From NCBI GenBank assembly GCA_900318205.1, contig ONJS01000002.1:18689-82688 (forward strand): a DNA stretch of 64,000 nt, written 5' to 3'. How positions within the stretch are numbered: the first letter of the stretch is position 1; every line of letters begins with the position of its first letter. Shown piece by piece: positions 13,708 through 26,636 of this stretch. The position numbers were made by a program, and so were the translations under genes. The notes under the pieces were generated by a model. That model was not told the origin of the DNA. It saw only the letters and a program-made list of their open reading frames with translations, and made no database searches. The DNA is from an uncultured Prevotellaceae bacterium (GTDB taxonomy: Bacteria > Bacteroidota > Bacteroidia > Bacteroidales > Muribaculaceae).

Positions 13708-13980
13708 ATGACTATTAAACCATTAAATGACCGCGTTCTCATCGAACCGGCTAAGGCTGAAGAAGTTGTCGGCGGCATCATCATCCCCGACAGTGCAAAG
13801 GAAAAACCTCTCAAGGGCAAAGTGCGTGCTGCTGGTAATGGCACCAAGGACGAGGAAATGATCGTTAAGCCCGGTGATACCGTTCTCTATGGCAAGTATG
13901 CTGGCAATGAGATTGAGATTGACGGTGAGAAACTGTTAATGATGCGCCAGAACGACATCCTGGCCATCGTCGTTGAATAA
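13708..13980 (+). CDS. groES: Co-chaperonin GroES
   Basis: [27 protein letters not shown]. Confidence 0.98.
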
Positions 13981-14049
13981 TTTTCAGGCTTTAGACTTTA
14001 GGTCTCAGGCTTTTGGAACTGACAACAGAAAACTGACTATTAAAACTAA

Positions 14050-15699
<1,650 letters not shown>

Positions 15700-15743
15700 T
15701 CCCCCTAACGGCTGTTTCATAGCATTATAGTTTTATATGGTTA

Positions 15744-15778
15744 CCCCTGCTGACGCACTCGCCAGCAGGGGCTTTTTT
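15744..15778 (+). terminator. groEL intrinsic terminator
   Basis: cccctgctg / cagcagggg stem followed by T tract. Confidence 0.9.
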
Positions 15779-15885
15779 GTGCCTAAAAGTCTCTGATTAT
15801 CTTCGTTTTTAACCTTATACGTACCATCATCGCCCTTTTTTTAAAATAATGTGTTAATCGTTCTTGATAATTACTAAAAAAGTTG

Positions 15886-15893
15886 TATTTTTG
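15886..15893 (+). promoter_or_regulatory. -7 box TATTTTTG heading the signalling cluster
   Basis: Consensus match; CTTG at 15863-15866 with a 19 nt spacer. Confidence 0.65.
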
Positions 15894-15952
15894 CAGTTGC
15901 TTAATGGATTAGTCAAGTTTTACTCTTATATACTTACAAAAATTGTGCTTTA

Positions 15953-16318
15953 ATGGAACAACAACGTTTGATATTCAATTCACGGGATGAGTTGTTGCGT
16001 ATTGACGTGCCGCGTATCGTTTACTATGAGGCGGACGGTAACTATACCTATATTGTGACAAGCAATAAGCTCAAGAGCGCTGTTTGCATGAACCTCGGCC
16101 AGATGGAGGAGGTGCTCGCCCAGCGGTTGAAGGAGAAGAAATGCCTCTTTGCCCGCATCGGCAAGAAGTATATTATCAACTTGAGTTATGTCTATAGGAT
16201 TAACCCGCTCAAGAAACAATTGGTGCTTTCCGACTTTAATAATTTCTCCTTCCAGCTTGATGTTTCCAAGGAAGCATTGAAGAACCTCAAGGAGATCATG
16301 GCTCACATTAAGATTTAA
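15953..16318 (+). CDS. Stand-alone LytTR DNA-binding protein (no receiver domain)
   Basis: IVYYEADGNYT and FARIGKKYIINL match the LytTR pattern; only 121 aa. Confidence 0.85.
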   Translation: MEQQRLIFNSRDELLRIDVPRIVYYEADGNYTYIVTSNKLKSAVCMNLGQMEEVLAQRLKEKKCLFARIGKKYIINLSYVYRINPLKKQLVLSDFNNFSFQLDVSKEALKNLKEIMAHIKI

Positions 16319-16324
16319 ACTTCG

Positions 16325-17002
16325 ATGGAACTGATTATTGGAAGAGACGGAGCAACAGCTAAGCTGAAAGTGGTTGATGGCACCGAGGTGAAGCTCTATG
16401 GCGAAGCCGCCAGTGTGCCCGTTGACGTTAGCCGTCAGCACTGTCAGCTCACCGCAATCGATGATAACACTTTTATCATCAGGAACATCAAGGCTGCCAA
16501 CGTGACCTGGGTCAACGGCATTGAAGTCCAGACCAAGAGAATCACCCGTGAAGATAAGGTCCAGCTTGGACAGAGCCGTTACTTGCTGCCGCTTGACGAG
16601 ATCCTGGAGCAGATCAAGCCCAATATTGTTGATATCAGCCCGCTCAAAGCGGTTTGGGAGAAATACAATACAAGCACTATTGCCATCAGAAAGCGCCAGC
16701 AGACCAATAACCTCTTGTCAAGAATTCCCATTTTCATGACGATGCTGGGTGGTGTGCTCATTGCCTTGAACGAGGCGATACGGCCTTATTCCATCACGTT
16801 CACTGTGATTGCCCTGTTGATCATGGCGTACGGTTTCTACCGCCAGGCAACCGATCGGGCTATTGACAAGCAGGAACAGTTGAAAAAGCAGTTCCAGCGC
16901 GACTACGTTTGTCCCAAGTGCGGCCGATTCTTGGGCTTTGTGGACTATGACTTGCTTCACCAGAACAAGAATTGCCCTGGCTGCAAGGCCAAGTATTTAT
17001 AA
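16325..17002 (+). CDS. FHA domain + two TM helices + C-terminal CxxC..CxxC zinc finger
   Basis: IIGRD, VSRQH, TWVNG (FHA); two hydrophobic segments; CPKC and CPGC. Confidence 0.85.
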   Translation: MELIIGRDGATAKLKVVDGTEVKLYGEAASVPVDVSRQHCQLTAIDDNTFIIRNIKAANVTWVNGIEVQTKRITREDKVQLGQSRYLLPLDEILEQIKPNIVDISPLKAVWEKYNTSTIAIRKRQQTNNLLSRIPIFMTMLGGVLIALNEAIRPYSITFTVIALLIMAYGFYRQATDRAIDKQEQLKKQFQRDYVCPKCGRFLGFVDYDLLHQNKNCPGCKAKYL

Positions 17003-17082
17003 GTGATTATCATTTCATACATTAATCCAACTATTTTGTCCAATATACTTTATATTGTTTGGATATCACGATAGCCGATGAT

Positions 17083-17090
17083 TAATTTTG
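17083..17090 (+). promoter_or_regulatory. Internal promoter TAATTTTG with TTTG at 17058-17061
   Basis: Full TTTG-N21-TAnnTTTG consensus. Confidence 0.7.
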
Positions 17091-17129
17091 CATCAACAAA
17101 ATGATTAACGGAACTAAAATTGAAAGATT

Positions 17130-18452
17130 ATGGTAAACGAAGAAACTATCTACACAGGCAACGCCCAACAAGGAAAGTCTAGTGAGGGTGCTCTGCAGAA
17201 TATCGTCGGCAAGACGTGGAAGCCTGTCACCATCGGTGGCACCGCTGGTATTTTATTGGGTGCCGGAGCTCTCTTGGCCCAGCACACCATCGCATTGAAT
17301 GCCGACGCCAAGTCTTCGGCTCCTGCCGATGACGTGATGAATAAGGTGACCCCGAGCCCTGTCGAGGAAAAAGTGGCTGAGGAGGCTATCATCGAGGATC
17401 AAACCGCCCTGCGCGTTGCTACGGTTAGCGATGACTTGACCTTTGAGCAGGCATTTACCCAGGCTCGCGAGATGGTGGGTCCTGGTGGCGTTTTCCACTG
17501 GCATGGTGCCATCTTCAGCACCTATACTGCTGATGAATGGGACGAGATGACCGATGAAGAAAGAGACCATTTTGCCGAGAGCGTACGCCCCGAGGTTGAT
17601 GCCAGCCAAGTCGATGCCGAGCAGCTCGCTTCGGTTGATGATGACATTGAACCCGACTCTGATATCGATGATGAGGGTGGCGAGGTTTTCGCCGATGTGG
17701 AAGTTGACCAGAACCAGGTGGCTGACCAGGATGTTGCCGATGTGCCCGTGCACGAAGCAAACGAAGAATTCATCCAGGCCGACATCCGTGAGGCCGAAGG
17801 TGGCTTTGCTCTCGCCGACGAGGTGGATGAGGATGTCGTTATTGCCGACAATGACGAGATGGTTCAGGATATCGCTATGATTGACGAGGAATTTAATGAG
17901 GATATCGCTGTAGCCGAAGATATGGCAGTTGCTGAAGATCTCGCAGTCGCCGAGGATGTTGCCGTAACTGAGGATATTGAGGTAGCCGAGGATGTCGCTG
18001 TTGCTGATGAAGACGCTGCTGCAGCCGACGATTCCTTTGCCCTCGATGAAATGTTCAACCTCAAGGCCGAGGACGATGTCGCTATGGCCAACGGTACCAA
18101 GAGCTCTCCTGATGCTGATCATCACGACAAATTTGAGGACTTCATCTCTGATGATGTGGTTCGCATTGTAGGTTATGGCGAGTTTGACGGTCACGCTGTT
18201 CGTGGTCTGGACCTGGATGGTGACCTCATTGCCGACGTTGCCGTGATCGACGTGGATGATTCTGGCGACCTCTCAAGAGACGATATCGTGGTTGAAGAAG
18301 GCAACGGCAACATGACTACCTACGGCGAACTTCATGACTTTGCCATGAACCAGCTTCAGGGTGCTCACGATGATGCCCATGACAATATGCCTAATCCTGA
18401 TGTCGCCGAGGATATGCCCGACTACATGGATGATGCCATCGCACAACTCTAA
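17130..18452 (+). CDS. Highly acidic protein with N-terminal hydrophobic segment, tandem repeat and DxDxD motifs
   Basis: Strong D/E bias; GTAGILLGAGALLA segment; DLDGDLIAD and DVDDSGD motifs. Confidence 0.75.
   Translation: MVNEETIYTGNAQQGKSSEGALQNIVGKTWKPVTIGGTAGILLGAGALLAQHTIALNADAKSSAPADDVMNKVTPSPVEEKVAEEAIIEDQTALRVATVSDDLTFEQAFTQAREMVGPGGVFHWHGAIFSTYTADEWDEMTDEERDHFAESVRPEVDASQVDAEQLASVDDDIEPDSDIDDEGGEVFADVEVDQNQVADQDVADVPVHEANEEFIQADIREAEGGFALADEVDEDVVIADNDEMVQDIAMIDEEFNEDIAVAEDMAVAEDLAVAEDVAVTEDIEVAEDVAVADEDAAAADDSFALDEMFNLKAEDDVAMANGTKSSPDADHHDKFEDFISDDVVRIVGYGEFDGHAVRGLDLDGDLIADVAVIDVDDSGDLSRDDIVVEEGNGNMTTYGELHDFAMNQLQGAHDDAHDNMPNPDVAEDMPDYMDDAIAQL
17898..18005 (+). repeat. Six degenerate 18 bp tandem units encoding EDx(A/E)V(A/T)
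   Basis: gaggatatcgctgtagcc, gaagatatggcagttgct, gaagatctcgcagtcgcc, gaggatgttgccgtaact, gaggatattgaggtagcc, gaggatgtcgctgttgct. Confidence 0.9.
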
Positions 18453-18481
18453 TCAACACTGCCGATAAAGACTCTGACAGC

Positions 18482-19276
18482 ATGCGACGTCTCATTCACA
18501 ACCTGGTCCTGCTCTTGACAATCGCCATGATGTGTCAAGGTGCTGTAGCCCGCAACTATATCCTGTGTGTGGGACTGGACGCCTATCCCAAGAAGGTGGG
18601 ACGTTATCGCGTCAAGTCGCTTAATGTCAGTGCCAACGATGCCAGGGTGGTAAATAAGGTCTTTGCTGCCAATGGCTTCAGCACCTCGCTTTTAACCGAT
18701 AGCGCTGCTACAATCGATGCTGTGCTGAGGACGATGAAATATCGCTTCTATACGGCCAAGAGTGATGACATGGTTGTCTTCTACTTCAGCGGCCACGGCA
18801 CTGAGGACGGATTGCTCTGTTATGACCAGGTGTTGAAGAACGAAGCGATTGTCAATGTCTTGAAGCAGTGCAAGGCCAAGACCAAGATGGTGATTGTTGA
18901 TGCTTGCTATTCCGGTATCATGCGCACCGACTCGGTTTGGCATAAGGCTTTCGGCAATGAAAATGTAATTTTGTTCCTTTCGTCCCGCAATCAAGAGGAA
19001 TCTTTCGAAACCGGATATAGCAACAGTTTGTTTACCATGTATCTTGAACGCGGGTTGCGAGGTGGTGCCGATACCAACAAGGACAGCAGTATCACACCCA
19101 AGGAATTATTTGAATTTGTGCACAACGGTGTCAGCACCGATGGCATGTTCACTTCACGCCAGCACCCCGTGATGTGGGGACGGTTTGATGGTGACAGCCC
19201 CATTATGATATGGAAGAATAAGAAAAACAAGAGTAACGAGACTAAACAGGAAATAGAAGATGCCACAAACTATTAA
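18482..19276 (+). CDS. Caspase-like (peptidase C14) protease with signal peptide
   Basis: FYFSGHG (His) and IVDACYSG (Cys) dyad; N-terminal signal peptide. Confidence 0.88.
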   Translation: MRRLIHNLVLLLTIAMMCQGAVARNYILCVGLDAYPKKVGRYRVKSLNVSANDARVVNKVFAANGFSTSLLTDSAATIDAVLRTMKYRFYTAKSDDMVVFYFSGHGTEDGLLCYDQVLKNEAIVNVLKQCKAKTKMVIVDACYSGIMRTDSVWHKAFGNENVILFLSSRNQEESFETGYSNSLFTMYLERGLRGGADTNKDSSITPKELFEFVHNGVSTDGMFTSRQHPVMWGRFDGDSPIMIWKNKKNKSNETKQEIEDATNY

Positions 19277-19787
19277 CATCAAGTGCCCGGGATGCGGCGT
19301 AGTATTGAGAGTGACCAATTCCAAGGACGAGGCCGAGAAACGTATCGCATGCCCCAAGTGCGGTAAGCGATTGATCGTTCCGTTCTATAAGCTCAAGCCC
19401 GAAGACGGTGAGACCCAGTTGGATGGCAAGGAAGGCAGCCAGTCGACCCAGATGTGTGGTGATGACCTGCTGCAGTCATGCTATCTCTTGTTTGAAGGTA
19501 AGGAATACGAACTGTCTATCGGCAGCAACACGGTAGGGCGCTCGGCATCCACCTCAATTGCCGATGTGCAGATTGAAACCGACGACTTGTTCATGAGCCG
19601 TGAACATGCTGTCATCAATGTTCGCCGTCTGCCCAATGGCGGTCTCAAGATAGACATCTCCAACTTCAAGAACAAGAATACCACCAAGGTTAACGATTAC
19701 CGTCTTGAAAGTGATGATGCCATCGTGCTGCATGACGGAGACACCGTTGAGATGGGCAGCACGTCCATGACTTTTCACACCAAATAA
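19260..19787 (+). CDS. Zinc-ribbon + FHA domain protein
   Basis: CPGC..CPKC; VGRS, MSREH, NTTKVN; overlaps the caspase gene by 17 bp. Confidence 0.85.
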   Translation: MPQTINIKCPGCGVVLRVTNSKDEAEKRIACPKCGKRLIVPFYKLKPEDGETQLDGKEGSQSTQMCGDDLLQSCYLLFEGKEYELSIGSNTVGRSASTSIADVQIETDDLFMSREHAVINVRRLPNGGLKIDISNFKNKNTTKVNDYRLESDDAIVLHDGDTVEMGSTSMTFHTK

Positions 19788-19798
19788 TTGAACACGAG

Positions 19799-21070
19799 AT
19801 GAGAATTAAGATATATCCACCGTTGGCGATCCAGGAGATGGGAAACCGTGACAATCAGGAAGATTACATCTATCCTGAGTTCGGTAAGGCGACCATCAAC
19901 GATCACTTGTTCATCGTGTGTGACGGAATGGGTGGCCATGAGAAAGGTGAAGTGGCTAGCCAAACCTTTGCCGAAGCCCTCGCTGACTATTTCAACGCCA
20001 ATGCTTCGGGCGACAGTGTACTGAAGGATTCGGTAATCGCTGCTGCTCTGGACCATGCTTACAGCAAGCTGGATGCTGCCGACAGCGGCAGCTACAAGAA
20101 GATGGGCACCACGCTCACCCTCCTGTATTTCCATCGTGGCGGAGTGACTGCAGCCCACATCGGTGACAGCCGCATCTATCATCTCAGGCCAGGCAAGAAA
20201 CTGCTCTACGTCAGCCGTGACCATTCATTGGTTTTTGACCTCTACCAGAGCGGTGAGATTACCTATGGCGAGATGAAGACCTCCTTGCAGAAGAACGTCA
20301 TCACTCGTGCCGTGCAGCCTGGAGAGGATAATCGTGTGAAGCCCGATATCATACACATCACCGATGTGAAGCCTGGGGACTATTTCTTCATGTGCAGTGA
20401 CGGTATGCTGGAACGCATGGATGACGATGACGTCCTGAAACTCTTCTCGGGCAGTGGTGATGACGAGAAAAAAAGGAAAAAACTTATCTCGGACACCGCT
20501 TCCAACCAGGACAATCACAGTGCTTACATCATTCATGTGCAGGACGTTATCCATGAGCCGGATGATGCAATCACCGTGAATGAAGAGAATACAGCCCGTT
20601 TCAATGTGCTGAACATGAAACCGCTGAACACCAACACCACCATTCAGAGTGAAGAGGAGGATAATGACTCTACTGTCATGGCCTCTTCGACACCGGTTGA
20701 GTCTGAACCAACGACCGTACGCAGCAGGAAAAAGTCAAGCTGGCTGTGGTGGGCTTTGCTCATCGCTGCGATTGTTGCAGCAGCAGCTTGGCTCGCTCTG
20801 TATGGTTTAGGGGGACGTCAAGAGAAATCCAATCCTGAAAGCTCAACTCCTGTGATGGAAAGCATCCATAACGAGGAACCGGTTAAACCGGTCATCCCTC
20901 ACACCGAAAAACCTCATCGGGTCAAGAGTGCTGATGCCGATCGTGCAGCACAAGAAGCTTCGCAATCGAACACGATGAATAGATACAAGGACTCGATCGA
21001 TGCAGCAAAGAAGCGCCATCAGGCAACTCAAGACAATGCAGACAATGAGCAGGAACCTGATAAGAATTAA
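19799..21070 (+). CDS. PP2C-family Ser/Thr phosphatase with TM helix and C-terminal extracytoplasmic tail
   Basis: NQED, CDGMGGH, HIGDSR, CSDG, DNHS; WLWWALLIAAIVAAAAWL. Confidence 0.92.
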   Translation: MRIKIYPPLAIQEMGNRDNQEDYIYPEFGKATINDHLFIVCDGMGGHEKGEVASQTFAEALADYFNANASGDSVLKDSVIAAALDHAYSKLDAADSGSYKKMGTTLTLLYFHRGGVTAAHIGDSRIYHLRPGKKLLYVSRDHSLVFDLYQSGEITYGEMKTSLQKNVITRAVQPGEDNRVKPDIIHITDVKPGDYFFMCSDGMLERMDDDDVLKLFSGSGDDEKKRKKLISDTASNQDNHSAYIIHVQDVIHEPDDAITVNEENTARFNVLNMKPLNTNTTIQSEEEDNDSTVMASSTPVESEPTTVRSRKKSSWLWWALLIAAIVAAAAWLALYGLGGRQEKSNPESSTPVMESIHNEEPVKPVIPHTEKPHRVKSADADRAAQEASQSNTMNRYKDSIDAAKKRHQATQDNADNEQEPDKN

Positions 21071-21096
21071 CGTCGAAAAAGAAAACACTACGATAT

Positions 21097-22614
21097 ATGT
21101 CTAATCAAGAAAATATCAATATGAAGTCGATGCTCAAGGTGGGTACCGTGTTGCATGGTACTTATCGCATCGACAGTTACCTGTCAAGCGGCGGATTTGG
21201 TAACACTTACGTGGCGACACACATCAATTTCAATGAAAAATACGCCATCAAGGAGTTTTTCATGAAAGGCGTGAATGAACGTGATGGAAACAACACCACC
21301 GTCAGTGTCAGCAACAACGAGAAGGTTACCGAATTTAACGAGCAGCTCGAGAAATTCAAGAAGGAGGCTCGCCGCTTGCGCAAACTCAATAATGATCATA
21401 TTGTCAGGGTATATGACTTGTTCGACGAGAATGGTACGGCCTACTATGTCATGGATTACATCAATGGCGAGAATCTGAAGGAAAAGCTCAAACGCACCGG
21501 ACAACCCATCAGTGAGGCCGAAGCTACCGTTGTACTTGAACAGGTCCTTGACGCTTTACAGGAAGTACATTCCCAGGGTATCTGGCATCTTGACTTGAAG
21601 CCTGCCAATGTGATGGTTGACCAGGAAGGTACTGTCAAACTCATCGACTTCGGTGCCAGCAAGCAGTTCAACAGCAAGACCGGTGGCGCATTGTCCACAT
21701 CGTCAGTAACCTATACCAATGGTTTTGCTCCCATCGAGCAGATGGAGAAGAGCTATGAGAAACTGGGACCCTGGACTGATTTCTATGCCCTTGGAGCAAC
21801 GATTTATAACGTGCTCTCCAATCAGCGTCCTCCCATGCCCAGTGACATCAATGATGACCGCACGCCCGACAAGCATCTTTCCTTGCCTCTGCCCTTCAAC
21901 ACGAGTGAAAGGATGCGCGAGCTGCTCCTGTGGTTGATGAAGACCAACAGGAAGGAGCGCCCCGCATCGGTGAAGGAGATTACTGACTTCATGAGTGCTA
22001 AGTCACTGACCAGCAGCCATGATGTAGAGTCAACAATCCTCAATCAGAGGAAAGCAGCTCCGGTTCAGCAGCCTCTAAGACATCAGGATGACTCAGCTAC
22101 CCTCAACGATGACGAAGATTCTGAAAGCAGCTCCGAGAATACCAAGAAAACCAAGAGGGCTATAGTTCTCGCCGCTTGTGCAGGATTGTTGCTTGCTGTG
22201 GGCTTGTATTTCTTCTTCAATGGTGGCGGCTCCAGCTCCAAGTCTCCGGTTATTCCCGATTCACTGCTGGTTCATGATGTGGTTGATTCAGTATTGACAA
22301 TTCCCCTGGGCGAGTGCAAGTACACGGGAACAGTCAAGAACGGTCTGCCCGACGGTAAAGGCACTGCTGTATTTACTGCCGATGGACAGAAGCTGGTGGG
22401 CGTATTCGAGAATGGTAGTGTTGATGGCGATAGCATCCACATCTACTATTCTAACGGTAATACTTTCGTTGGCTCCTTCAAGAACAATAAGATGCACCAT
22501 GGTCGCTTCACCTGGGTTGATGACGGCTCCTATTTTGAGGGATTCTTCACCGATGGTCAGCCCAATATGAAGAAGGGTGCGATGTATGACAAGAAAGGCA
22601 AACGTATCAATTAA
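21097..22614 (+). CDS. Hanks-type Ser/Thr kinase with TM helix and MORN-like C-terminal repeats
   Basis: GGFGNTY, AIKEF, HLDLKPAN, DFG; TM segment; YTGTVKNGLPDGKG-type repeats. Confidence 0.92.
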   Translation: MSNQENINMKSMLKVGTVLHGTYRIDSYLSSGGFGNTYVATHINFNEKYAIKEFFMKGVNERDGNNTTVSVSNNEKVTEFNEQLEKFKKEARRLRKLNNDHIVRVYDLFDENGTAYYVMDYINGENLKEKLKRTGQPISEAEATVVLEQVLDALQEVHSQGIWHLDLKPANVMVDQEGTVKLIDFGASKQFNSKTGGALSTSSVTYTNGFAPIEQMEKSYEKLGPWTDFYALGATIYNVLSNQRPPMPSDINDDRTPDKHLSLPLPFNTSERMRELLLWLMKTNRKERPASVKEITDFMSAKSLTSSHDVESTILNQRKAAPVQQPLRHQDDSATLNDDEDSESSSENTKKTKRAIVLAACAGLLLAVGLYFFFNGGGSSSKSPVIPDSLLVHDVVDSVLTIPLGECKYTGTVKNGLPDGKGTAVFTADGQKLVGVFENGSVDGDSIHIYYSNGNTFVGSFKNNKMHHGRFTWVDDGSYFEGFFTDGQPNMKKGAMYDKKGKRIN

Positions 22615-22646
22615 ATCAGTGACGCCCTTAGTGTAATCCACGCATC

Positions 22647-23807
22647 ATGAAGAAGTTTTATTGCATAATGCTCTTGTCATTAACGCTGATATTCTCGGCG
22701 GTTTCTGCCTTTGGTCAGGTGGGTCAGGTGAGCAAGCCTATTCAAGCCAAGCCCAGCACGACTAAGGTGAAGAAACCAGCCGGTAACAGCGGCAATAAAA
22801 CATCTAAATCCAATGCCTCCAATCGCTCTGCCTCAAGGAGATCTTCGGCCCCAAGCCGCACCAGCAGCAATGCGACTGCAAATAGCGGCTCTTCATCATC
22901 GGTTGTTACGGTGGCAATCAACTGCAATGCCGAGGCTGCTGATGTCTATATCGATAATTCCTATTATGGCGAGGCCGGAAACTCCTATAATCTGAAGACT
23001 GGTACCCACACTATTCAGTTGGTGGCCGAAGGGTACGAGGACTTTTTGGACAACTTTACGGTAACCGGCTCCAACCGCTCGTTCAATTTCTCGATGACCA
23101 AGAAGGCCCTGCTGTCTGTCCTTGATTTTCTGGACGAGATGGTCTTTGTTCATGGCGGAGCATTCGAGATGGGTTCTAAGGGGCTTGATGCCGAATATGA
23201 TGAGAAGCCTGCCCATGAGGTGATTTTACCTTCTTTCTATATGAGCAAGCATGAAGTGACCCAGCAGTTATGGGTCGATGTGATGGGAGGTAATCCGAGT
23301 GTCCACATGGGTGAATTCAAGCCTGTAGAGTCTGTGTCATGGGAGGATTGCCAGTTGTTCATCTCCCGCTTGAATGCCTTGACAGGCGTGAAGTTCCGTT
23401 TACCCACCGAGGCCGAATGGGAATATGCAGCGCGCGGAGGTAATATGAGCAAAGACTTCAAGTATGCTGGCAGCGACAGCATCAATGACGTGGCATGGTA
23501 TGGTGCCCTTGAAGTGGATCCCCAGGATGTAGGAGGAAAACAACCCAATGAATTGGGGTTATATGATATGTCAGGAAATGTTATGGAATGGTGCTCCGAC
23601 TGGCACGGGTCCTACCATGCCGGAAGGCAAAAGAATCCCACTGGGGCTCAAAGTGGTCAATACCGCATAGTCCGCGGCGGGTGTTGGCAAAGCGATCCGA
23701 GCCATTGCACCGTTACCTATCGTTTCCCGATTCCCCCCGAAGAGGTTAATGAGACCATTGGGTTTAGACTTGTTGCGAAAACTTTGAAAACAAAACATAA
23801 TAAGTGA
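22647..23807 (+). CDS. Secreted PEGA + FGE-sulfatase (SUMF1-fold) protein
   Basis: Signal peptide, S/K-rich linker, PEGA-like segment, RLPTEAEWEYAARGG, GLYDMSGNVMEW. Confidence 0.85.
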   Translation: MKKFYCIMLLSLTLIFSAVSAFGQVGQVSKPIQAKPSTTKVKKPAGNSGNKTSKSNASNRSASRRSSAPSRTSSNATANSGSSSSVVTVAINCNAEAADVYIDNSYYGEAGNSYNLKTGTHTIQLVAEGYEDFLDNFTVTGSNRSFNFSMTKKALLSVLDFLDEMVFVHGGAFEMGSKGLDAEYDEKPAHEVILPSFYMSKHEVTQQLWVDVMGGNPSVHMGEFKPVESVSWEDCQLFISRLNALTGVKFRLPTEAEWEYAARGGNMSKDFKYAGSDSINDVAWYGALEVDPQDVGGKQPNELGLYDMSGNVMEWCSDWHGSYHAGRQKNPTGAQSGQYRIVRGGCWQSDPSHCTVTYRFPIPPEEVNETIGFRLVAKTLKTKHNK

Positions 23808-25126
23808 TGAAAAGATACTTGGTGATATTATTTTCATTCATGTTACTAATGCCTGTGCAGACAGCGTTTGCACAGGTGAGTAACGTTCCTAAACCTAGCA
23901 TAGAAAGGCCAAAGCCACAGCCTAAACCAAGGCCACAGCCTAGGCCGAGGACCCAGTCAAGACCTAAGCCGAGCCCAAGACCTCAGCGTACTCAGCACAA
24001 TGGACCCTCAGTTGATGTGACCTTCAGTTGCAATATTGAGGATGTTCCTGTTTTCATCTCTATTGACGGAAAACAGCCTAGTGATATCGATGAAATCTAC
24101 AACTTGACAATCGGTAATCACAAGGTGCGTGTGACGGCTGACGGTTATGTGCCTTATAGCACTCCCATTAAAGTTGTTGAGGAAGGCGATTTCTTCTATT
24201 TTGAACTCTCGGAGGCAACAGGATACGAGGACTCTGATGTGGGAGATGAAGACGAAGATGAGGCCGAGGTTGATGAACCATCCGCTCCAGTGGATATTAA
24301 TGCTCCATTTGTTGCAAGCGAGTTGCCCCCCGAGTCCTCTCAACCCGAGGTGTCGGTACTTGTCGAAGATCCCGCCAATGCACAGAAGTTCCTGAATGAC
24401 ACGATTACTGTCAACGGCGTCTCGTTTGTCATGGTCTTTGTTCCCGGTGGTACTTATACCAGGTATGAAATTCCTGAGAATCTGGACTCTATCATTGACA
24501 TGAATGTGACGGGCGTGCCACCTGCCCACAGGGTCTCCTTGTCCAATTTCCACATCGGCATGTGTGAGGTGACATGGGATTTGTGGTATGCGGTCATGGA
24601 GGATAGCATCGTTGATTACTACCACAATCGTCCCTATGACGAAGCGACTTGGGTTGATTGCCAACAATTCATTGATAAGCTCAATAAACTGACAGGAAAG
24701 ACGTTCAGACTGCCTACCGATGCTGAATGGGAATATGCCGCCCGTGGCGGAAACAGGTCTAACGGATATGTCTATTCCGGCAGCAACAATATCGATGAGG
24801 TGGCTTGGTACTATGAGAATTATGAAGGAGAATGGCACGAGGTTGCTACCAAGGCGCCCAATGAATTGGGTATCTATGACATGACGGGTGGCGCCTGTGA
24901 ATGGTGTGCAGACTGGTATAATTGGCCTGATGCCAATGAGAACACGCCGCCTCTCGTCAATCCTAAAGGCCCGCTGGAGGAACAGAAAAACAGCAGGAGC
25001 GGTAATCCCATGGGACGCACCATCAGGGGCGGCAGCTATGGTCAGGACGCCGCTATGTGCTGCGTGTTCAAGATTTATTATGCCAATCTTCAGAAGGCCC
25101 GCTATGGTTTACGCTTAGCGATGTAA
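23804..25126 (+). CDS. Second secreted PEGA + FGE-sulfatase-fold protein with Pro/Arg-rich linker
   Basis: PKPQPKPRPQPRP linker; RLPTDAEWEYAARGG; GIYDMTGGACEW. Confidence 0.85.
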   Translation: MMKRYLVILFSFMLLMPVQTAFAQVSNVPKPSIERPKPQPKPRPQPRPRTQSRPKPSPRPQRTQHNGPSVDVTFSCNIEDVPVFISIDGKQPSDIDEIYNLTIGNHKVRVTADGYVPYSTPIKVVEEGDFFYFELSEATGYEDSDVGDEDEDEAEVDEPSAPVDINAPFVASELPPESSQPEVSVLVEDPANAQKFLNDTITVNGVSFVMVFVPGGTYTRYEIPENLDSIIDMNVTGVPPAHRVSLSNFHIGMCEVTWDLWYAVMEDSIVDYYHNRPYDEATWVDCQQFIDKLNKLTGKTFRLPTDAEWEYAARGGNRSNGYVYSGSNNIDEVAWYYENYEGEWHEVATKAPNELGIYDMTGGACEWCADWYNWPDANENTPPLVNPKGPLEEQKNSRSGNPMGRTIRGGSYGQDAAMCCVFKIYYANLQKARYGLRLAM

Positions 25127-25159: not shown

Positions 25160-25191
25160 AAGCACATCCTGCCAGAATTCAGGATGTGCTT
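25160..25191. terminator. Inverted repeat closing the signalling cluster, overlapping the nhaC-like stop codon
   Basis: aagcacatcctg / caggatgtgctt, followed by tcttc. Confidence 0.7.
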
Positions 25192-26636
25192 TCTTCTGCC
25201 GGATGATGCCGTTTGATCTTCCAGCCAATGGCTGCTACGATAATGGTTGTCAGCGGGCTAAGGATATTAAAGAAGCAGTAGGGCAGGTAGGTGAGGGTGG
25301 GGACGCCTAGCACTGTCGCTTGCGTCATGCCGCATGTATTCCAGGGCACGAGTACTGATGTCACAGTGGCGGCATCCTCGGTGGTACGACTCAACAGACG
25401 CCCTTCATAGCCTTCCTTTTTGTAAATATCGCGGAACATATCGGCTGTGAGAACAATACTGATGAATTGGTCGCCTGTTGTGAGATTGAGGAAAATACCT
25501 GTTCCCACAGTAGAGGAAACCAGGCTCGTCCGCGAGCGTACCCACTTGACGACGACATTGGTGATGCTTCCAAGCATACCACTAGCCACCATGACAGCAC
25601 CGAAGCACAAAGCACACAGGATGAGCCAAATGGTATTCAACATTCCTGCCATACCTCCAGTTGATACCAGGTCATTAAGGGCATCGAAACCCGTCTGCAC
25701 AGCAGTGGATCCATAGTAAGTTATCGCCAAACCCTTGAAAATGGCTGCTGGAGTGCTCAACGTCGGGTCGTCGGCAATCTGGCACAGGATGTGGGGTTGC
25801 AGGATAATAGCGGTAATGCCCGCAATGATTGAAGAGACAAACAACACGACCAGTGAAGGCACCTTGCGGGCGATGAGGATTCCGGTAATCAGCGGAACGA
25901 GCAATGTCCACAACGAGATGTTAAAGGTAGAATCCAATCCATCGACATACTGATCAATGTGGAGGGCATCTTCACTGCCATGCCCAAGACCGGCAACCAG
26001 GAAGATGACAAGCGTGATAAGAATGGATGGTGTGGTGGTCAGTACCATGTAACGGATGTGCTCAAAGATATCCACCCTCACCGATGACGATGCAAGAATG
26101 GTCGTGTCACTCAAGGGCGACATCTTGTCACCGAAATAGGCTCCCGAGATGATGGCACCGGCTGTCCATGCTTCGGAGATGCCCAATGCTTGACCGATAC
26201 CCAACAGGGCTACACCAATGGTGGCAATCGTTGTCCAGGAACTGCCTGACAGCAGCGATATTAAGGCACAAATGACACAGGCGCTCACCAGAAAGAAACT
26301 GGGTGACAGAATATGTATGCCATAATAAATGAGTGTGGGTACCACACCACTGATCATCCACGACCCCGCGAGCATACCCACCGTCAACAGGATGAGCAGA
26401 GTGACAGACACGTCACCGATGGTTTTGGTCATTTGTCGCTCAAATGTTTTCCATGGTATGTGGTAACATGTCATCGAAATGAGCACGCATACGGCAACTC
26501 CCATTAACAGAGCAATCTGACTGCCGCCACTCAATGCATCACTGCCAAACAATGTGATGACGATGCTTATCAGGATGATTAGAACGACAACGGGAATAAT
26601 CGCTACGAGGGGATGAGGATGTTTGCGTTCGGTCAT
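25179..26636 (-). CDS. NhaC-family Na+/H+ antiporter
   Basis: GSSWTT, GAYFGDKMSPLSDTT, PWNTCG. Confidence 0.9.
   Translation of the reverse strand: MTERKHPHPLVAIIPVVVLIILISIVITLFGSDALSGGSQIALLMGVAVCVLISMTCYHIPWKTFERQMTKTIGDVSVTLLILLTVGMLAGSWMISGVVPTLIYYGIHILSPSFFLVSACVICALISLLSGSSWTTIATIGVALLGIGQALGISEAWTAGAIISGAYFGDKMSPLSDTTILASSSVRVDIFEHIRYMVLTTTPSILITLVIFLVAGLGHGSEDALHIDQYVDGLDSTFNISLWTLLVPLITGILIARKVPSLVVLFVSSIIAGITAIILQPHILCQIADDPTLSTPAAIFKGLAITYYGSTAVQTGFDALNDLVSTGGMAGMLNTIWLILCALCFGAVMVASGMLGSITNVVVKWVRSRTSLVSSTVGTGIFLNLTTGDQFISIVLTADMFRDIYKKEGYEGRLLSRTTEDAATVTSVLVPWNTCGMTQATVLGVPTLTYLPYCFFNILSPLTTIIVAAIGWKIKRHHPAEESTS

Follow-up and report, generated by a model that had tools for sequence, protein, structure and literature searches.

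A patchy Bacteroidales gene module predicted to relay extracytoplasmic information to transcription through threonine phosphorylation

Positions 15953–25126 of a 64,000-nucleotide stretch of contig ONJS01000002.1 (assembly GCA_900318205.1; the whole stretch is hereafter the window), from an uncultured Prevotellaceae bacterium, carry nine genes, g1–g9, among them genes for a membrane Hanks-type kinase, a PP2C phosphatase, two FHA-domain proteins, a LytTR DNA-binding protein and an exported caspase-fold protease. We propose, with a probability of roughly 60%, that this locus is one copy of a widespread but patchy module of Bacteroidales, passing information from outside the cytoplasm on to transcription through threonine phosphorylation. 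Judging from conserved promoter motifs, the likely targets of its DNA-binding switch are the operon of the module itself and a small number of outer-membrane (OM) protein genes. Bacteroidales are the dominant Gram-negative order of gut and rumen, and to our knowledge Hanks kinase signalling in them is almost unstudied. Likewise, we know of no function for exported bacterial caspase homologues.

The module is recognizable by its recurrence. Scanning one genome per species with an alignment of the caspase g4 recovered at least 468 relatives, and the best 80 were used; they come from Prevotellaceae, Bacteroides, Muribaculaceae, Rikenellaceae, Paludibacteraceae and other Bacteroidales metagenome-assembled genomes, with a few isolates. 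Locus members were found by hidden Markov models built from the first orthologues and run on all open reading frames (ORFs), many of the loci lying on short contigs. Over 79 loci besides our own, the caspase gene was present in 79, the zinc-ribbon-FHA (Zn-FHA) gene in 75, PP2C in 70, g3 in 69, the Ser/Thr kinase (STK) in 66, the FHA-transmembrane (FHA-TM) gene in 58 and LytTR in 54. Adjacency follows the same pattern: Zn-FHA and PP2C are neighbours in 68 loci, caspase and Zn-FHA in 64, g3 and caspase in 62, LytTR and FHA-TM in 53, and PP2C and STK in 40. Where a g1-type LytTR gene is present, it adjoins the FHA-TM gene in 53 of 54 loci. The recurrence of this gene set in 79 other loci places the arrangement far beyond chance. 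These counts therefore divide the nine genes into a variable sensor layer and a core of seven: LytTR, FHA-2TM-zinc-ribbon, g3, exported caspase, Zn-ribbon-FHA, PP2C-TM and STK-TM. The initial annotation had presented all nine as a single unit that should co-occur elsewhere. Co-occurrence across Bacteroidales species is borne out, and the unit stands in the form of the seven-gene core; it does not extend to the two PEGA-FGE genes g8 and g9, which have counterparts in about a quarter of the loci and belong to a set of ~22 FGE paralogues in this genome.

Distribution of the module is uneven, as had been anticipated. Using the conserved, module-specific g3 ecto-domain as a marker in evenly drawn genomes, we detected it in 36 of 301 genomes of the family (12%; 14 of 29 genera) and in 11 of 301 genomes of the order (4%), so the module is accessory and patchy, not housekeeping. 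Among related genomes (n = 40), five, all of the same genus, carry a close caspase orthologue. In two of these, G007 and G024, the complete cluster lies between groEL and NhaC in unchanged gene order; their groEL is 98% identical and the cluster proteins 41–83% identical. Close relatives that lack the module, G013 (98% identical groEL), G016, G017 and G005, share no synteny with the window 3' of groEL, so an insertion or deletion event cannot be reconstructed. Another relative of the same genus carries the module at a different site (L107; G489:C2:55100-75000) with two STK-FGE fusions upstream; tblastn found no caspase between its g3 and Zn-FHA genes, and it may be a caspase-less variant. Gaps in other loci hold accessory families that the window lacks, and no OM barrel is among them. 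They comprise a second acidic TM protein of ~226 aa in 33 loci (e.g. L071:2072-2749), a secreted protein of ~130 aa in 19 (L097:4412-4801) and a protein of ~350 aa, BspA/LRR-like by eye, in 18 (L058:5141-6202).

Within the window, the nine ORFs are confirmed as co-oriented on the plus strand, separated from g1 to g9 by successive gaps of 6, 127, 29, −17, 11, 26, 32 and −4 bp. The cluster is flanked by groES/groEL (13708–15699) on its 5' side and by a convergent NhaC-type antiporter gene (25179–26636, minus strand) on the other, its GC content (~0.48–0.51) is like that of the remainder of the window, and no mobile or defence genes were seen between groEL and NhaC. A strong hairpin at ~15744–15780 serves as the groEL terminator. 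By sequence inspection a second hairpin, AAGCACATCCTG ... CAGGATGTGCTT (25160–25191, not assigned to a strand), lies between the convergent g9 and NhaC genes and is likely the terminator and 3' boundary of the cluster. Both boundaries, the gene order and the domain assignments agree with the initial annotation: Pfam returned every domain named there, leaving g3 without a family, and a motif scan found the GR/SxxH, PP2C, kinase and caspase motifs intact, as claimed. NCBIfam gave below-cut-off matches alone (Stp1-type PP2C, PknB-type kinase, EACC1-type caspase and GldK), and PADLOC gave generic kinase, caspase and PP2C matches with no defined system. TM and signal segments and motif positions come from hydropathy and motif scans. 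By this analysis the MORN repeats of g7, the ectodomain of g3, the caspase g4 and both PEGA-FGE proteins are predicted to lie outside the cytoplasmic membrane; the catalytic domains of kinase and PP2C, both FHA domains and LytTR are predicted to lie inside.

A predicted writer, eraser and reader of phosphothreonine are encoded side by side. The kinase g7 (21097–22614; 505 aa; Pfam Pkinase 1.5e-42, plus MORN) has the motifs AIK50, HLDLKPAN164 and DFG184, a TM segment at residues 356–374 and extracytoplasmic MORN repeats. It is the sole Hanks kinase detected in the genome, in that tblastn of g7 against the whole genome matches itself alone. The phosphatase g6 (19799–21070; 423 aa; Pfam PP2C_2 2.9e-13; best NCBIfam match Stp1-type, 6e-49) carries DGMGG42, GDS122, SDG200 and DN238, and is anchored by a C-terminal TM segment (319–337) followed by a short ecto tail. 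The gene g5 (19260–19787; 175 aa; Pfam FHA 2e-10 and zinc-ribbon matches) encodes a cytoplasmic zinc-ribbon-FHA reader with C9/C12/C31/C34, G93-R94 and S113-x-x-H116. The genome has one other PP2C (L111:2956-4265, on contig C26), of 221 aa and without a TM segment, whose gene overlaps that of an M54/M10-like metallopeptidase 1.5 kb from another FGE paralogue. We rejected it as a part of the module on account of this unrelated context beside the M54-like metallopeptidase.

The most distinctive component is g3 (17130–18452; 440 aa), a new single-pass membrane protein with no Pfam, NCBIfam or PADLOC match. A cytoplasmic N-terminal tail (NEETIY) precedes a TM segment (32–50), a conserved ecto-domain of ~60 aa, an acidic linker and a conserved Asp-rich C-terminal domain, with Asp and Glu making up 27% of the protein. 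Its AlphaFold2 (AF2) model has two small confident domains (92–152 and 340–412) joined by ~185 disordered acidic residues, and a fold search against the PDB returned nothing below E = 0.9. The ecto-domain family numbers 2,479 cluster representatives among 1.84 billion (~2,500 clusters at 50% identity). g3 thus represents a new and sizeable domain family without a Pfam model or structural relative. Some family members (P0121–P0124 and others) have two or three tandem copies of the ~60-aa unit and reach 1,126 aa, so the g3 ecto-domain is a mobile module of a larger uncharacterised family.

A threonine motif links the g3 tail to the kinases. T6 of g3 (N-E-E-T-I-Y) is at least 90% conserved in 69 homologues. 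The pattern [DE]-[DESTAN]-T-x-[ILVFYM], of EETI[YL] type, occurs in the first 20 residues of 54 of 69 g3 proteins (shuffled mean 1.9), and in 45 of 104 module kinases it lies within the 25 residues that follow the kinase domain (shuffled mean 2.1). In g7 the linker that follows the kinase domain reads VESTIL. We regard these EETI-type threonines, common to the g3 tail and the kinase linkers, as candidate phospho-acceptors. The N-terminal E-[ET]-T of g3 resembles the ETTS motif that in GarA and OdhI is phosphorylated by a kinase and also bound by an FHA domain. Where loci are rearranged, g3 directly precedes the Zn-FHA gene, an arrangement that fits g5 reading g3.

The product of g4 (18482–19276; 264 aa; Pfam Peptidase_C14 2.6e-17) is a caspase-fold cysteine protease of clan CD, family C14, predicted to be exported by the hydrophobic signal that a hydropathy scan finds at its N-terminus. 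Both the sequence and a confident AF2 model (pLDDT 93) fit this assignment, with a caspase-hemoglobinase fold and a His-Cys dyad in the SGHG and DAC motifs; H105 and C142 are invariant in 70 homologues. Searching the PDB by sequence gave no match at E ≤ 0.01. By fold, the neighbours are generic clan CD members only (GSU0716, legumain, caspase-7 and MALT1, TM-score ~0.6), so the specificity for the P1 substrate residue cannot be read from a close structure. Orthocaspases are known to prefer Arg or Lys. In g4 an Asp stands two positions ahead of the catalytic Cys (DAC); together with further invariant acidic residues it suggests Arg/Lys specificity like that of orthocaspases (PMC6426788).

At the other end of the predicted circuit stand g1 and g2. 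g1 (15953–16318; 121 aa; Pfam LytTR 1.7e-11) is a LytTR DNA-binding protein without a receiver; the domain spans residues 13–116, Pfam finds no second one, and syntenic orthologues are 79–98% identical. The product of g2 (16325–17002; 225 aa; Pfam FHA 1.5e-7; 80–96% identity among orthologues) is a membrane protein that combines an FHA domain (G6-R7, S36-x-x-H39), two TM segments and a C-terminal zinc ribbon with two CxxC pairs (CPKC196 and CPGC217). One TM segment (130–148) is clear, and the second, weaker one was judged by eye.

The 127-bp spacer between g2 and g3 contains a candidate operator for g1. It holds a direct repeat, TTTCATACA-N12-TTTTGTCCA, of 21-bp period (17013–17042, plus strand), followed by a putative internal promoter of g3–g9, P2 (17058–17090, plus strand), with a −33 element TTTG at 17058–17061 and a −7 box TAATTTTG at 17083–17090; g3 starts at 17130. 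Repeat, −33 and −7 are all conserved in orthologous spacers, and a more distant subgroup has TTTCGTACA...TTTCCTACA at equal spacing. In some loci a kinase gene is inserted after g2, and the motif remains with g3. A strict version of the repeat pattern is present in 27 of 81 regions upstream of g3, as against 2.8% of random 300-bp windows, at −46 to −128 from the g3 ATG and mostly at −100 to −128. With a relaxed pattern, most LytTR-bearing loci have a clear copy on the module strand, located upstream of g3, of accessory genes that precede g3 or of extra kinases; the motif lies within 200 bp upstream of LytTR in 4 loci only. We assign the repeat to g1 because g1 is the module's only DNA-binding protein, because LytTR proteins bind direct repeats just upstream of −35 (PMC6193735), and because the two co-occur phyletically; the 17013–17042 repeat is thus the predicted g1 operator.

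The same repeat points to a small candidate regulon. The exact 15-mer TTTCATACATTAATC occurs in this genome and in G007, G011, G022 and G024 (5 of 41 genomes), which are exactly the carriers of the close module, and in 0 of 36 other relatives. Three further copies of the repeat promoter are found in this genome, at C21:109066 (minus strand), C31:204639 (plus) and C48:616 (plus), in loci L108, L109 and L110. Each has the same architecture, a repeat, then −33 TTTG, then −7 TAnnTTTGCA. Behind them lie genes for two paralogous small OM beta-barrel proteins (PF13505) and a 772-aa Big-domain (Big_7) lipoprotein, which we consider a candidate LytTR regulon. In G024, one extra copy precedes an apparent orthologue, by N-terminal similarity, of one of the two OM targets.

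Transcripts from the rumen cross most junctions within the cluster. Five bovine rumen metatranscriptomes from two studies hold the stretch, with contigs 99–100% identical to the window. Contigs cover g1-g2 (15907–16353 and 15948–16846), g2-g3-g4 (16839–18551 and 16238–17966), g4-g5 (18510–19400), g5-g6 (19288–19820), g6-g7 (20374–21192 and 20717–21524) and g7-g8 (22315–22846 and 22384–23109), and two lie in g9 (24006–24384 and 24573–25088). Co-transcription, which the initial annotation had assumed, is supported by their crossing of the junctions g1/g2, g2/g3/g4, g4/g5, g5/g6, g6/g7 and g7/g8. In each run the depth peaks at groEL, several-fold to ~fifty-fold above the cluster, and in runs X26 and X28 it falls to 0 over the bin at 15755–16205, between groEL and g1. 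From this we conclude that the cluster is transcribed on its own. A putative −7 box for g1-g2, TATTTTTG (promoter P1; 15886–15893, plus strand), is of the Bacteroidota TAnnTTTG type; the earliest 100%-identical RNA contig starts at 15907, in agreement with this position, and TAnnTTTG-like boxes also lie upstream of g1 orthologues. In run X15, depth is greater over g3 (20) than over g1-g2 (8–18).

The exported proteins and domains constitute the variable part of the module. g8 (22647–23807, plus strand; Pfam FGE-sulfatase 2.9e-44) and g9 (23804–25126, plus strand; 440 aa; FGE-sulfatase 8e-25), which overlap by 4 bp, each encode a secreted protein with a signal peptide, a PEGA domain and an FGE-sulfatase domain of C-type-lectin fold. 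The best PDB relative of g8 is Treponema TvpA (1.9e-31), with true FGEs at ~1e-17. Aligned to human FGE, whose catalytic cysteine pair we take to be C336/C341, g8 has Ser at the first position and keeps the second Cys; g9 has Gln at the first by positional reading, without alignment. With an incomplete catalytic pair, the non-enzymatic TvpA as nearest relative and no sulfatase gene in the cluster, we rejected a true FGE role for g8 and g9, and propose instead that g8 may be a non-enzymatic ligand sensor or kinase co-factor. The ~22 secreted FGE-sulfatase paralogues of the genome are scattered and are 45–56% identical to g8 across the domain, with TvpA again the best structural relative. One example is L109:3049-4047 (minus strand), and a Dockerin_1-FGE fusion adjoins one of the OM targets. 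Diversification by a diversity-generating retroelement (DGR) was likewise rejected: blastn of the g8 and g9 3' ends found no template repeat in the genome, giving short 71–89% matches alone, the placeable ones in FGE paralogues; a reverse transcriptase was not searched for.

Elsewhere the sensor layer is attached to the kinases themselves. Ectodomains of the 104 module kinases include FGE-sulfatase (12), Lcl_C (8), MORN (7) and Sel1 (6), as well as TPR, TonB_C, LRR_5, FKBP and others, and kinase genes are multiplied to as many as five per locus. FGE proteins occur in 20 of 79 loci, and STK and FGE are adjacent in 11. Among seven syntenic species, a g9-type FGE gene lies downstream of the kinase in 7 and a g8-type in 5, the PEGA match not always being detected. 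STK-FGE fusions in relatives link the separate genes g8 and g9 to the kinase, and the two PEGA-FGE proteins form an accessory sensor layer. Cytoplasmic domains are much better conserved than exported parts among syntenic orthologues: identity is 86–95% for the kinase domain and 79–98% for LytTR, as against 41–75% for MORN, 31–79% for PEGA and 30–62% for the acidic linker of g3.

Together these features suggest a route from envelope to promoter. A ligand or damage would be sensed by the variable ectodomains, here the kinase MORN repeats and the secreted FGE-fold proteins g8 and g9, which might act on g7 as TagR does on PpkA. g7 would then phosphorylate the EETI-type threonines of its own linker and of the g3 cytoplasmic tail. 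The FHA readers g5 (soluble) and g2 (membrane-bound) would bind these marks, and the PP2C g6 would erase them. Once engaged, g2, the proposed membrane partner or gate, would free or activate the receiver-less LytTR protein g1. By binding the 21-bp-period repeat, g1 would drive g3–g9 in a feed-forward manner, and would also drive the three other promoters (two small OM beta-barrel proteins and the Big-domain lipoprotein), leading to envelope remodelling. The exported caspase, nearly always encoded beside g3, probably cleaves or is held by the g3 ectodomain, and could be a periplasmic step that generates or terminates the signal. A self-contained circuit with a transcriptional output had been suggested from the gene content, and the conserved LytTR-type direct repeat at the internal promoter adds to its support.

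Several points weigh against this proposal. We infer from sequence the kinase-substrate pairs, the FHA targets, the gating of g1 by g2, the binding of g1 to the repeat and the caspase substrate, and the role and P1 specificity of the caspase from its DAC motif and general knowledge of orthocaspases. The operator assignment rests on g1 being the sole DNA-binding protein and on phyletic co-occurrence, and the strict repeat precedes 27 of 81 g3 genes only, the others needing the relaxed pattern with its appreciable background. g8 and g9 may be loosely coupled, because FGE is absent from about three quarters of the loci and has ~22 paralogues elsewhere in the genome. Finally, DNA may be present among the metatranscriptome contigs, whose depth is a poor guide to expression levels.

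A bolder version of the proposal, which we put forward tentatively, is that the module belongs to an unrecognised class of trans-envelope device, with g3 coupling proteolysis in the periplasm to threonine phosphorylation in the cytoplasm. Surface damage or a foreign ligand would be caught by interchangeable lectin-like or repeat ectodomains. This would trigger cleavage of the acidic g3 ectodomain by the exported caspase, with the kinase marking the EETI tail of that protein at the same time. The FHA proteins would read the combined state and release the LytTR switch, and the outer membrane would be rebuilt. If true, gut and rumen Bacteroidales would have a counterpart of "tit-for-tat" damage sensing that is independent of type VI secretion systems (T6SS), and it might double as a defence against phage or contact-dependent attack.

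The module resembles a hybrid of two known systems. One is the threonine phosphorylation pathway of the Pseudomonas aeruginosa H1-T6SS (TagQ/TagR/TagS/TagT-PpkA-PppA-Fha1), which likewise combines a membrane Hanks kinase bearing a periplasmic domain, a PP2C, an FHA reader and a periplasmic protein of the FGE superfamily, the last (TagR there, g8/g9 here) being compared at superfamily level. Residues 127–359 of TagR belong to this superfamily, and TagR is modelled to engage the PpkA ectodomain after membrane damage (PMC13713981). In contrast to that pathway, whose output is T6SS assembly, the output here is a LytTR DNA-binding protein; the module adds the exported caspase, g3 and a second, membrane-bound FHA protein, and no TagQ, TagS or TagT homologues are seen. 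As previously noted, the window has no T6SS genes, and in the whole genome there is no VipB/TssC match, for which reason we rejected a T6SS linkage.

The second is the LytTR regulatory system (LRS), exemplified by HdrRM and BrsRM of Streptococcus mutans, which consist of a LytTR protein, a membrane protein that inhibits it and direct repeats (PMC6193735). As in an LRS, a receiver-less LytTR gene lies directly upstream of a co-transcribed membrane protein gene (g1-g2, with a 6-bp gap and spanning RNA contigs), and direct repeats lie just upstream of the −35/−33 element of a target promoter. The g1-g2 pair differs in three respects. Its membrane partner has a zinc ribbon and an FHA domain, so that threonine phosphorylation is the implied means of control. 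The repeats are at the g3–g9 promoter and not at the g1-g2 promoter, unlike an LRS, where they mark the system's own operon promoter and positive autoregulation. And the pair is embedded in a kinase/phosphatase/caspase module. With no T6SS in the genome and no repeats at the LytTR gene's own promoter, the module is a member of neither, and it falls outside the actinobacterial Fha/PstP/Pkn cluster and the NTPase-dependent caspase/FGS conflict systems as well.

Could the cluster instead be an anti-phage or conflict system of the abortive-infection kind, in which diversifying lectin-like kinase sensors detect an invader and the caspase is the effector of death or dormancy? The patchiness (36 of 301 family and 11 of 301 order genomes), the variable and fast-diverging sensor domains and the proximity of the FGE domain to the DGR variable protein TvpA would all suit such a role. 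Predicted conflict systems repeatedly feature caspase, kinase, FHA and FGS domains (PMC7159879, PMC8195603), and mad6 and PD-T4-6 are among the PADLOC kinase models that g7 matches. The published FGS/caspase NTPase-dependent systems (Kaur et al. 2020, 2021; PMC7159879, PMC8195603) use STAND, MoxR-vWA or GTPase switches and EAD adaptors, and have in common with our module a caspase, an S/T kinase, FHA and a sensor of FGS lectin fold, itself a relative of DGR variable proteins. Those systems are intracellular, however; here the caspase and FGE proteins are exported, and the nine genes include no NTPase and no EAD. No toxin is fused or adjacent to the caspase, nor is there an EAD/EACC1 partner; its score with the NCBIfam EACC1-type model NF047832 is 65.5 against a cut-off of 140, and the PADLOC matches are to generic domains only. 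Furthermore, the locus has normal GC and sits between groEL and NhaC, where mobile and defence genes are absent; ordinary rumen samples show its expression, its predicted regulon consists of envelope proteins, and it lacks the template and variable repeats (TR/VR) that g8/g9 diversification would entail. We found no direct support for a conflict system and judge it unlikely.

Still less probable is a housekeeping controller of envelope growth and division, equivalent to the actinobacterial FhaA-FhaB-PstP-PknA-PknB cluster. The logic is shared, in that fhaA-fhaB(fipA)-pstP-rodA-pbpA-pknA-pknB also places two FHA proteins, a membrane PP2C and one or more membrane Hanks kinases in one operon; g7 is the genome's only Hanks kinase, and the best NCBIfam matches are to the Stk1/PknB and Stp1 families. 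Both matches nevertheless score below cut-off (154 against 450, the former for PknB_PASTA_kin, and 166.6 against 230), g7 has no PASTA domain, no SEDS or PBP genes are among the nine, and LytTR, caspase and g3 are additions, the first two without a counterpart in the actinobacterial cluster. The module is accessory rather than universal: it is carried by ~12% of family genomes and absent from close relatives with 95–98% identical groEL, and a module so distributed is not essential.

Comparably improbable is a mere adjacency of independent units, namely a LytTR/membrane-protein pair, an operon of kinase, phosphatase, FHA and caspase genes, and two secreted FGE-family proteins unrelated to the others. 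In its favour, P1 and P2 are separate promoters, many loci have the LytTR-FHA-TM pair 0.7–6 kb from the g3-caspase block or on its other side, and FGE genes occur in 20 of 79 loci, with ~22 paralogues scattered over this genome. Against it, 54 of 79 loci, many of them on incomplete contigs, have that pair no more than 10 kb from the caspase, the FHA domain of g2 makes sense only beside a Thr kinase, of which g7 is the only one in the genome, the candidate operator is at the second unit's promoter, STK-FGE fusions tie the third unit to the kinase, and RNA contigs cross g2-g3 and g7-g8.

The phosphorelay module we favour has no counterpart of this composition in PADLOC, NCBIfam or the searchable literature, in keeping with the claim that no such system had been characterised. 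Literature searches found no description of it; a preprint of 2026 does refer to an unpublished "novel caspase-based conflict system" at work in the periplasm, which may overlap with the module. Hanks kinase/PP2C/FHA signalling is itself known. New here are one protein family (g3), an unprecedented exported-caspase component, a candidate direct-repeat operator with its regulon, and the EETI[YL]-type motif common to the g3 tail and kinase linkers. The module offers a compact circuit in which swappable ectodomain inputs, including FGE/C-type-lectin folds like that of TagR, feed a writer, an eraser and two readers, together with a candidate phospho-acceptor motif, a predicted operator and a small OM-protein regulon. 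Were the mechanism true, LytTR regulators could be gated by phosphothreonine and a periplasmic caspase would have a role in a commensal, with relevance to envelope stress, the sensing of phage or competitors, and colonisation.

Two minor observations concern other elements of the genome. A palindromic element, TTTCGTACA[GC]GGGGACGGTTCTTTTGTACG, occurs at no fewer than eight sites as inverted pairs on both strands, ~45 bp apart (C16:69535, C30:234189/253159/254131, C31:290951, C36:13806 and C43:52625 among them); it has the look of a REP or terminator element and bears no relation to the module operator. Several of the metatranscriptome runs contain contigs that stop at 15703/15704 and carry adapter sequence there, 4–5 nt past the groEL stop and upstream of the 15744–15780 hairpin, and these ends may represent a processed 3' end of the groEL mRNA.

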